Origin: a virus
Taxonomy: Duplodnaviria; Heunggongvirae; Uroviricota; Caudoviricetes
IMG/VR virus record: IMGVR_UViG_3300045988_137643
Coordinates: 1-64,000 of that record
DNA: 64,000 nucleotides
Direction: 5' to 3' (one strand)
A program made the position numbers and the translations under genes. Below the pieces are notes generated by a model that was not told the DNA's origin, searched no databases, and was given only the letters and a program-made list of their open reading frames with translations. The first letter of the stretch is position 1. Every line of letters begins with the position of its first letter. Below, in pieces: positions 1-47,091 of the stretch.

Positions 1-20
1 CTAAACAACCATTCTTCACA

Positions 21-46
21 ATGCCCAGCGTATTGCTGGGCATTTT
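21..46 (+). terminator. rho-independent-type terminator hairpin
   Basis: GCCCAGC-GTATT-GCTGGGC stem-loop followed by TTTTC; duplicated at 891-916. Confidence 0.65.
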
Positions 47-83
47 CATATAGACGCAATCCCTTCTGATTTACTCAGCCCCT

Positions 84-98
84 AAAACAATTTGTTTT
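84..98. promoter_or_regulatory. 15-bp palindrome AAAACAA-T-TTGTTTT (operator family A)
   Basis: perfect inverted repeat; recurring upstream of early genes. Confidence 0.6.
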
Positions 99-140
99 CT
101 GCGTTCTATTATCAGTTAGAGTAACAGTATTAACAAAATA

Positions 141-848
141 ATGGAGCAAATTATGTCGATTGTTGATAAAGCTCATATGTTTGCCGTTGGAGTGTATGGT
201 GGTGTAGGTAAGAAGCGTAGATATACGGGGGAAGACTACGTTACACACCCAGTTTCTGTGCGTGAGATTGTTGCTTGGCACGGAGGCACTGTCGAAATGC
301 AGGCTGCTGCATTATTACATGGTGTTATTGAAGATACCCATATCACTATCGAAATGGTACGCGAGTATTTCGGGAATCGTATAGCTGAGATGGTACTGGC
401 GCTGGCAAACGTTGCCAAACCAGACGACGGCGATAGTCTTGCGAGATTCATTATTAATGTTCGCGAATTGCAAAAGACGTTGGATATGCAGACGCGAATG
501 ATTAAATTGGCCGACCTGTTGGACAATCTTACTGCTATTAAGCTGTGTGCACCTGGTTCCTCACCTATCTATTTTGCTGAAACAGAGCTTATGCTGGAAA
601 TGGTCTTTAACGGCAGGGCAATTGGCCCCGATGCTGGTGTTGTAGAATATTTAGAGAGTAAAGGCATTGAGCACGAATTATTAGTAAACGTACGAGCGGT
701 AGTGAATAAAGGCATATCTGACTTGAAGCCAGAGTACCGAACGCAATATGAATCCTATAAGGAGATGATTTGGCACAAATGGCGTCAATCAGAATATCAA
801 CATAGCGCGAACGTAACCTCCCATCCTGCAGCCGGATGCCGGTGCTAA
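141..848 (+). CDS. HD-domain protein with RelA/SpoT (p)ppGpp-hydrolase-like motifs; the canonical HD dyad reads HG
   Basis: ORF track; motifs HPVSVREIV and AALLHGVIEDT...FG..IAEMVLALANV resemble SpoT/Mesh1 hydrolase motifs; GGAG RBS precedes an alternative ATG at 153. Confidence 0.55.
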   Translation: MEQIMSIVDKAHMFAVGVYGGVGKKRRYTGEDYVTHPVSVREIVAWHGGTVEMQAAALLHGVIEDTHITIEMVREYFGNRIAEMVLALANVAKPDDGDSLARFIINVRELQKTLDMQTRMIKLADLLDNLTAIKLCAPGSSPIYFAETELMLEMVFNGRAIGPDAGVVEYLESKGIEHELLVNVRAVVNKGISDLKPEYRTQYESYKEMIWHKWRQSEYQHSANVTSHPAAGCRC

Positions 849-890
849 ACCTGGCCACCAGGTTAAGTAATTAAACAACCTCTCTTCGCA

Positions 891-916
891 ATGCCCGGCA
901 ACACGCCGGGCATTTT
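891..916 (+). terminator. rho-independent-type terminator after 141..848
   Basis: GCCCGGC-AACAC-GCCGGGC then TTTTC; compensatory base-pair change relative to copy at 21-46. Confidence 0.7.
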
Positions 917-953
917 CATATAGACACAATCCCTTCTGATTTACACAGTACCT

Positions 954-968
954 AAAACAATTTGTTTT
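954..968. promoter_or_regulatory. family A palindrome AAAACAA-T-TTGTTTT
   Basis: identical to 84-98; followed by GATAAT -10-like hexamer. Confidence 0.6.
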
Positions 969-1004
969 CTGCCTTTTGTTGTTAGAGATAATAAGCCACA
1001 TAAG

Positions 1005-4263: not shown

Positions 4264-4278
4264 ATAACAATTTGTTTT
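4264..4278. promoter_or_regulatory. family A palindrome (ATAACAA-T-TTGTTTT)
   Basis: one mismatch to consensus; same cassette context as 84-98 and 954-968. Confidence 0.55.
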
Positions 4279-4943: not shown

Positions 4944-4958
4944 AAAACAATTTGTTAT
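4944..4958. promoter_or_regulatory. family A palindrome AAAACAA-T-TTGTTAT
   Basis: between GATAAT hexamer and RBS of 4978..5460. Confidence 0.55.
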
Positions 4959-14771: not shown

Positions 14772-14834
14772 CTTAGTAAGACATGCCAGACCTAATTAAA
14801 CACCCCAGAAAACAAGTTGGTTAGCAGATGCAGT

Positions 14835-14847
14835 AAACAAGTTGTTT
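14835..14847. promoter_or_regulatory. family A palindrome AAACAA-G-TTGTTT upstream of terS
   Basis: perfect 6+1+6 inverted repeat; weaker copy at 14808-14822. Confidence 0.55.
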
Positions 14848-14887
14848 TAGAGCGCATGGACGCGCTCTGTGTGTTTTAGAGGGATCT

Positions 14888-44950: not shown

Positions 44951-45029
44951 GTTATTAAGCCCCCCTATGTACCTATCATTAAACCTTTACACCGCAGCCG
45001 TAGGCATTTAGGCTATATCACATATAAGA

Positions 45030-45042
45030 AAACAAGTTGTTT
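45030..45042. promoter_or_regulatory. family A palindrome AAACAA-G-TTGTTT upstream of parA
   Basis: followed by GATAAT hexamer and AAGGGA RBS. Confidence 0.6.
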
Positions 45043-45077
45043 CAGACGATAATTATATACGCAAAGGGAACTCTCCA

Positions 45078-47048: not shown

Positions 47049-47059
47049 CTAATACTAGA

Positions 47060-47072
47060 AAACAATTTGTTT
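47060..47072. promoter_or_regulatory. family A palindrome AAACAA-T-TTGTTT upstream of helicase gene
   Basis: perfect inverted repeat 20 nt before ATG 47092. Confidence 0.6.
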
Positions 47073-47091
47073 AAAAAACAAAGGAAAGCAC

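Follow-up and report, generated by a model that had tools for sequence, protein, structure and literature searches.

To our knowledge, no broad-spectrum natural antidotes against toxSAS defence toxins are known apart from the alarmone hydrolases of phages, and the enzyme PaSpo of Salmonella phage SSU5 (gp099, AFL47026) is a laboratory workhorse in this respect. Here, we report on a degenerate paralog of this enzyme, encoded at the very start of a 64,000-nt stretch of DNA (IMG/VR record IMGVR_UViG_3300045988_137643, positions 1 to 64,000; the whole stretch is referred to as the window) that stems from an SSU5-like phage-plasmid of E. coli. SSU5 PaSpo was shown to neutralize all five toxSAS toxins tested, namely CapRel, PhRel, PhRel2, FaRel and FaRel2 (PMC7229694), is described as taking off the 3′ modification that FaRel2 places on tRNA (bioRxiv 10.1101/2024.07.05.602228), and is in routine use against the toxicity of FaRel2 and PhRel2. 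In vitro, the small alarmone hydrolases (SAHs) MESH1 and ATfaRel restored the aminoacylation of pyrophosphorylated tRNA, in a study that employed PaSpo as co-expression antidote (10.1101/2021.04.30.441581).

Catalysis by SAHs depends on six motifs: the Arg of HD1 and the Asn of HD6 contact the base, the Glu-Asp pair of HD4 activates the nucleophile, and the His of HD2, the His-Asp dyad of HD3 and the Asp of HD5 hold Mn2+ (PMC9293644). In RelH of C. glutamicum, the Mn2+ ligands are H34, H58, D59 and D122 plus two waters, and SAHs are described as dimers (PMC9293644). The consequences of altering the metal site are known from laboratory mutants. In Caulobacter SpoT, the exchange D81G, the identical Asp-to-Gly change to the one described below, abolished the hydrolase activity (PMC4848567), and in the C. 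marina SAH antitoxin ATfaRel the exchange D54A abolished both ppGpp degradation and toxin neutralization; by the authors' description, D54 is homologous to a RelSeq active-site residue whose mutation abolishes hydrolysis. A natural loss is represented by the pseudo-HD domain of E. coli RelA, which lacks the catalytic residues (no HDxxED), is conserved and exerts a regulatory, non-catalytic role on the synthetase (PMC8012599).

The HD3 dyad of a PaSpo-type hydrolase

The open reading frame at 141..848 (+ strand, 235 codons) is present as initially annotated. Its true start is probably ATG 153 rather than ATG 141, because a GGAG element lies 6 nt 5′ of the former and because the homologues of SSU5 and P0002, the latter being the PaSpo at the syntenic locus of another SSU5-like element, begin at the equivalent Met-Ser, as does the RefSeq protein of the near-identical plasmid p009_B. 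Residues are therefore numbered from ATG 153, so that G57, H56 and H32 correspond to G61, H60 and H36 of the initial annotation (Table 1).

Profile searches returned Pfam HD_4 (56.3 bits, cut-off 27.2, 4e-15) as the sole domain of the 231-aa protein, which defines a stand-alone, single-domain architecture, together with TIGR00691 spoT_relA (4e-20, over the hydrolase region of the profile) and phrog_990 ("metal-dependent phosphohydrolase", 2e-26). All significant sequence matches in the PDB were hydrolase domains of Rel, SpoT or RelA or SAHs, including Lmo0812, Mesh1, A. baumannii SpoT, M. tuberculosis Rel and a (p)ppApp hydrolase, and the respective alignments placed the stretch AALLHGVIEDT over ALLHDVIEDT. 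An AlphaFold2 model built from a 9-sequence alignment (mean predicted local distance difference test score, pLDDT, 87.5; predicted template-modelling score 0.85) was all-helical with 12 helices, and the top 50 Foldseek matches of this model in the PDB consisted exclusively of Mesh1, bacterial SAHs and hydrolase domains of Rel, SpoT or RelA. Compared with cellular SAHs (human and Drosophila Mesh1, C. glutamicum RelH, P. aeruginosa SAH and Lmo0812), the model showed a Foldseek probability of 1.0, target-normalized TM scores of 0.7-0.76 and the same motif order, whereas sequence identity was only ~20-25% and all cellular SAHs carry the complete Mn2+ tetrad.

The closest characterized relative is gp099 of SSU5, with 67% identity over 210 residues and an intact AALLHDVVEDT motif; identity to the PaSpo-like P0002 amounted to 73%. 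By sequence and predicted fold, the protein is thus assigned to the RelA/SpoT-type HD_4 SAHs, PaSpo subfamily, and the SpoT/Mesh1-like hydrolase domain first recognized by eye was borne out. The gene's only annotation, "HD domain-containing protein", should not be equated with an active ppGpp hydrolase. The protein shares with SSU5 PaSpo the single-domain, all-helical SAH fold, the motifs HD1, HD2, HD4, HD5 and HD6, an SSU5-like phage-plasmid as host element and an upstream palindrome/promoter-like module; it differs in the Gly at HD3 (plus an Asn in a sister allele), in H15Y, Q20K, T85A and R95S, and in a 16-residue C-terminal tail. At the gene level, the differences are a repeat-flanked cassette after metG, the lack of a phiTE_072 partner and the status of a second copy beside a true PaSpo orthologue.

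The replacement of the dyad Asp, already noted from the sequence, was confirmed: positions 318-320 read CAT and positions 321-323 GGT, and at the two corresponding columns His-Asp was found in 153 of 153 aligned relatives (five PaSpo homologues and 148 of the best 150 representatives of clusters formed at 50% identity in a library of 1.84 billion proteins). The first 1000 bases of the window match E. coli plasmid p009_B at 99.9% identity and the plasmid of strain 2014C-3307 at 95.8%. These two and 27 other isolate or metagenome contigs make up 29 independent assemblies examined besides the window, which originate from different laboratories, sources and methods, and all of them carry GGT at 321-323. 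Likewise, Gly occupies position 57 in all 15 aligned members of the 90%-identity protein cluster, whose 17 members represent over 150 contigs drawn from NCBI isolates, ENA metagenomes and Logan assemblies.

Within this clade two alleles were distinguished, the HG allele of the window and an NG allele in which the His is also replaced. With P0002 as outgroup, H56N is derived in the NG lineage, and NG is at least as frequent as HG (collection blocks indexed: P0017, 123; P0018, 100; P0019, 49). D57G is a lineage-fixed natural substitution. SpoT D81G and ATfaRel D54A are laboratory mutants, whereas the allele described here is natural, fixed in a plasmid lineage and under purifying selection.

As a result, the Mn2+ tetrad is incomplete, reading H32, H56, G57 and D121 in the window and N56-G57 at the dyad in the sister allele, with R22 (HD1), E60-D61 (HD4) and N125 (HD6) present. 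As SpoT D81G abolishes hydrolysis and ATfaRel D54A loses its activity, a loss or severe reduction of Mn2+-dependent activity is a well-founded inference, and the protein would no longer be able to remove the 3′-pyrophosphate from (p)ppGpp, (p)ppApp or tRNA. Erosion extends beyond the dyad. Of the 43 columns that are conserved in at least 80% of the aligned relatives, 11 are altered in the window protein, compared with a mean of 3.45 in 150 full-length representatives (only one of which is as deviant) and with 1-4 columns in the nearest HD-bearing relatives. The departures include H15Y and R95S, at positions that are His and Arg in 99% of relatives, as well as T85A, Q20K, D133A and F136S, a pattern typical of a protein freed from catalytic constraint. 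A substrate trap with an otherwise perfect pocket was considered as well and is weakened by the changes H15Y, Q20K, T85A and R95S at conserved columns. The RelA pseudo-HD domain likewise combines the RelA/SpoT hydrolase fold with the loss of catalytic residues; in RelA, however, the whole HDxxED is missing from one domain of a long multidomain enzyme, which this domain regulates in cis, whereas the window protein stands alone, with the metal dyad and some further positions degraded.

Table 1 Coordinates of the degenerate PaSpo gene, its motifs and the flanking elements in the window
Feature	Position	Strand	Basis
Coding sequence, degenerate PaSpo-type SAH paralog, 231 aa	153..848	+	family, structure and homologue matches
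Shine-Dalgarno element GGAG for start 153	143..146	+	read from sequence; equivalent GGAG/TGAG in SSU5 and L004
H32 (CAC), HD2, Mn2+ ligand, retained	246..248	+	sequence and alignment
H56-G57 (CAT GGT), HD3 dyad with Asp replaced by Gly; sister allele AAT GGT (N-G)	318..323	+	sequence and alignments
E60-D61 (GAA GAT), HD4, nucleophile activation, retained	330..335	+	sequence and alignment
D121 (HD5, Mn2+ ligand) to N125 (HD6, base contact) in KLADLLDN, retained	513..527	+	sequence and alignment
Non-native 16-residue C-terminal tail	798..848	+	comparison with P0002 and NG allele
Left direct-repeat copy, extending by ~42 nt beyond the 5′ edge of the window into the end of metG; metG terminator and operator/promoter-like module inside	1..121	+	blastn; Cyrano/p009_B metG-end alignment
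Right direct-repeat copy: metG 3′-end relic 829-870 (stop 868-870), terminator-like hairpin 890-914, palindrome 954-968	829..987	+	Cyrano/p009_B metG-end alignment
Terminator-like hairpin 3′ of metG, 10-bp stem followed by UUUUCAU	20..44	+	fold -17.6 kcal/mol, z = -5.3
Perfect palindrome AAAACAA-T-TTGTTTT, operator-like, 55 nt upstream of ATG 153	84..98	.	motif count; homologue comparison
Palindrome sites	84-98, 954-968, 1005-1019, 4264-4278, 4944-4958, 14834-14848, 45029-45043, 47059-47073		

Origin of the second copy and selection acting on it

The window starts directly 3′ of the stop codon of a plasmid-borne metG. In p009_B, another "HD domain-containing protein" of 213 aa with an intact HD dyad is encoded outside the window, ~8.4 kb 5′ of the HG gene, which rules out the idea that the degenerate protein is the sole alarmone hydrolase of the element; a tblastn search for a second PaSpo, phiTE_072 or DUF4942 within the window found none. 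The intact PaSpo occupies a slot (DUF4942 - hypothetical genes - PaSpo - phiTE_072) that is shared by SSU5 and further SSU5-like elements, and its stop codon overlaps the phiTE_072 start by 4 nt, whereas the degenerate gene lies off this slot, after metG and without a phiTE_072 partner. The same arrangement, with an intact, HD-bearing PaSpo of likewise 213 aa upstream of metG, was found in the NG plasmid. When 16 further contigs were read 10 kb upstream, the intact copy was recovered in 14, one contig ended inside phiTE_072 and one was devoid of the PaSpo-phiTE_072 pair; all ten complete intact copies carried HD.

The two co-resident PaSpo proteins are 62-63% identical, as opposed to 73% identity between the degenerate copy and P0002. 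The sequence comparison therefore identifies the second copy as a xenologue and not a local duplication, and an in-genome tandem duplication was ruled out as origin on the same grounds. Among 170 E. coli plasmids matching the region, 168 run from metG straight to window position ~832 onwards and only two carry the gene.

In those that do, the gene resides on an 870-bp cassette downstream of metG that is bounded by ~160-bp direct repeats; blastn of positions 1-140 against the window aligned them to 872-987 with 82.5% identity. Both repeat copies contain a hairpin, the right one (890-914) with a folding energy of -19.1 kcal/mol and UUUU after the stem. The two hairpins differ by a compensatory A-U to G-C pair (CCCAGC/GCTGGG at 20-44, CCCGGC/GCCGGG at 890-914), which indicates that each copy has kept the stem intact after the duplication. 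At the 3′ end of the gene, codon 216 (798-800) reads CAA where P0002 has its native stop (…WRQSEY*), and translation consequently continues into the metG relic. The tail of the NG allele is in the metG frame (…QPDAGA*), whereas that of the window (…PAAGCRC*) is frame-shifted by a 4-nt insertion relative to NG (CCTG, 825-828). In the structure model the tail is disordered, with pLDDT below 50 for residues 223-231.

Selection was assessed by comparing HG and NG alleles over the 215-codon core, where every difference postdates D57G. Nine synonymous (S) and 6-7 non-synonymous (N) substitutions separate the two alleles, corresponding to a ratio of non-synonymous to synonymous rates (omega) of 0.18-0.21; under neutrality 78% non-synonymous changes are expected (binomial p = 0.003). 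Six distinct alleles contained 12 S and 13 N polymorphic sites (p = 0.004). For intact PaSpo alleles of comparable divergence, omega was 0.17-0.21, and in ten matched contigs the counts were 10 S : 6 N for the degenerate copy, 18 S : 7 N for the intact copy (Fisher p = 0.73) and 104:2 for metG. No stop codon or frameshift was found within the core in any allele seen, all of which had been retrieved via intact proteins. Purifying selection thus persists after D57G, with neutrality being rejected on small counts. The alternative assumption that constraint is relaxed relative to active PaSpo was not supported, given the Fisher test and the omega baseline of the intact alleles.

A proposed role beside the active enzyme

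With moderate confidence, we regard the protein as a catalytically dead or crippled PaSpo paralog that is retained for a non-catalytic role beside the active enzyme, both the activity loss and the role being presumed. In the proposed course of events, a second PaSpo-type SAH copy would have been acquired from another SSU5-like element and inserted by recombination immediately 3′ of metG, the most plausible route being the operator/promoter module common to many genes of SSU5-like elements. The broken Mn2+ site would then have cost the protein its Mn2+-dependent 3′-pyrophosphate removal and turned it into a stand-alone pseudo-hydrolase. A non-catalytic job appears most likely because the fold, the intact reading frame, an own ribosome-binding site, the shared regulatory module and purifying selection have all been kept; candidate jobs are the binding of a pyrophosphorylated ligand or tRNA end, or of a protein partner such as the intact PaSpo (via a heteromer) or a host toxSAS. 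Of the options raised in the initial annotation, the pseudo-hydrolase survives and is strengthened by the loss of the His in the sister allele, the additional losses at invariant positions and a dN/dS of ~0.2. The accompanying suggestion of a counter-defence function has a firm basis for the family, in the experiments on SSU5 PaSpo, but not for the degenerate copy.

A more far-reaching proposal, which we put forward only tentatively, is that this protein is a pseudo-hydrolase of the stand-alone kind, the first one to be reported for the RelA/SpoT superfamily, and thereby a dead paralog co-regulated with active PaSpo that binds without cleaving and might act as a trap or sensor for 3′-pyrophosphorylated tRNA or alarmones, as a heterodimeric regulator or as a toxSAS decoy. 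The family and its anti-toxSAS role are already known; a limited literature search found neither a stand-alone pseudo-SAH nor a natural, selection-kept SAH with a broken metal site beside an intact paralog. A natural copy with a broken metal site next to an intact PaSpo offers a ready-made separation-of-function variant, and its existence is a hint that the SAH fold lends itself to reuse in binding or regulation, as within RelA.

Several observations weigh against a retained, non-catalytic paralog. Among the six HD motifs only HD3 is affected, the other five (R22, H32, E60-D61, D121, N125) being intact, and for this reason residual or altered catalysis may be possible in the HG allele. The gene is absent from ~99% of complete E. 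coli plasmids of matching type and is clearly dispensable, and contig L035 keeps the degenerate gene without an intact PaSpo, which argues against a strict heterodimer dependence. Between HG and NG plasmids, the neighbouring genes are far more constrained, with 60 S : 1 N in metG, 11:0 in apbC and 8:0 in the S24 peptidase gene. Finally, the selection tests draw on only 16-25 substitutions, and their alleles were retrieved via intact proteins, a procedure by which disrupted copies would be missed.

A functionless relic, i.e. an inactivated, redundant copy that hitch-hikes on a successful plasmid lineage and whose low dN/dS reflects small numbers or short time, is unlikely in our assessment, although a fair number of observations would fit: the copy is redundant with the intact PaSpo of the same plasmid, has taken two hits on the metal dyad together with erosion at other invariant positions, carries a non-native tail that is frame-shifted between alleles, is rare (2/170 matching E. 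coli plasmids) and has counterparts in the truncated or fused PaSpo remnants of other SSU5-like elements (P0009, P0010, P0013-15). However, all HG-NG substitutions postdate D57G and still yield an omega of ~0.2 (p = 0.003 versus neutrality), the degenerate and intact copies of matched contigs cannot be told apart by their N:S ratios, the 215-codon core is free of stops and frameshifts in the alleles seen, and the ribosome-binding site and promoter-like module are intact. Should the gene nevertheless be only an inert extra copy, it would provide a clean example of gene movement in phage-plasmids, in which recombination takes place at shared operator/promoter modules and duplicates the junction.

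Quite improbable, in our view, is a working hydrolase that has been attenuated or re-specialized, in which H32, H56 and D121 plus water still hold a metal and H15Y, Q20K and R95S retune the substrate towards another pyrophosphorylated nucleotide or RNA end. HD1, HD2, HD4, HD5 and HD6 are intact, purifying selection is as strong as on intact PaSpo, and SAHs tolerate some motif changes, as exemplified by PaSAH, which is active with Leu at HD1 (PMC9293644). On the other hand, the same Asp-to-Gly exchange abolishes hydrolysis by Caulobacter SpoT, the Asp is present in all 153 aligned relatives, and the abundant NG allele persists with two of the four ligands gone, which is hard to square with selected metal-dependent catalysis. 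The two remaining options of the initial annotation are practically negligible: a sequencing or assembly error with GAT as the true codon, only one transition away from GGT, is ruled out by the invariant codon in the 29 assemblies and the Gly in the 15 aligned cluster members, and an unrelated HD family in which position 57 is not catalytic, for which speaks a generic HD profile (PF01966) scoring under its threshold, by the HD_4 score well over threshold, the uniform spoT_relA, PDB and fold matches to RelA/SpoT-type hydrolases and the 67% identity to SSU5 PaSpo, the position itself being that of an Mn2+ ligand (HD3).

Shared regulatory module and neighbouring features

The 15-nt palindrome AAAACAA-N-TTGTTTT occurs at eight sites in the window (at most one mismatch allowed), compared with 0.04 expected. 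All sites lie 20-70 nt upstream of + strand reading-frame starts (153, 1032, 4347, 4978, 14888, 45078, 47092), and PaSpo is likewise preceded by the conserved palindrome in SSU5, L004 and the canonical, intact copy. The 70 nt 5′ of ATG 153 are homologous to the PaSpo upstream regions of SSU5, L004 and the co-resident intact copy and to that of the downstream DUF5983 gene. Assigned by eye, TTGTTT within the palindrome would serve as -35 element, followed by a -10-like element 18-19 nt downstream, and the palindrome looks like the operator of a dimeric regulator overlapping this -35-like sequence. From this shared 5′ module we infer that both PaSpo copies are regulated alike; the early expression initially assumed for the gene is only indirectly supported, via the operator-like palindrome and the promoter-like module. 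A scan for consensus promoters and terminators returned no + strand promoter and no terminator, the hairpin being missed as its T-run comprises only 4 T. An S24-type repressor gene is located just upstream of metG.

The phage-plasmid metG directly 5′ of the window (L002 1967-4000; L026 7815-9848) encodes a full-length methionyl-tRNA synthetase of 677 aa with a C-terminal tRNA_bind domain; its position next to (pseudo-)enzymes acting on tRNA 3′ ends may or may not be coincidence. An apbC/Mrp homologue is also encoded by the phage-plasmid. In SSU5-like elements, intact PaSpo is always followed by a phiTE_072-family gene (PF26211) with a start/stop overlap of 4 nt (L026 978-2158; L001 3001-4190, outside the window), which suggests a translationally coupled pair. 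Remodelled PaSpo derivatives were encountered in other SSU5-like elements (P0009, P0010, P0013-P0015) and comprise a class truncated at residue 139, present on 139 contigs, an AAA-ATPase N-terminus joined in frame to PaSpo from "EDT" on, without HD2 and HD3, and a third class with a replaced N-terminus that lacks HD1-HD4. Judging from these sequences, PaSpo is recurrently inactivated or rebuilt in SSU5-like plasmids.

Two antisense reading frames within the degenerate gene (236..526, 607..858) gained no support, and an Rfam search returned nothing credible in 1-1500 or 1300-2950. The next gene downstream (1023/1032-1331, + strand) encodes a DUF5983 protein, for which start calls differ (73 or 99 aa) and whose leader contains the palindromes at 954 and 1005. 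It is followed by a stretch of ~800 nt (~1480-2290, + strand) whose strand composition is extreme, with a GC skew of -0.4 to -0.5 and an AT skew of up to +0.56, and which is A/C-rich, nearly free of G and T runs and carries no RefSeq gene. On its 3′ side lie a GGAGG…CCTCC+TTTTT hairpin (2322-2346) and a GC-rich region with GGGAAAAGG…GAAACGG repeats (2400-2760). The segment 1400-2880, which has no Rfam match, is conserved in E. coli elements (91-97%) and in parts in SSU5 (68%) and Klebsiella SSU5-like phages (73%), and its A/C-rich region may represent a long non-coding RNA or an element related to replication.

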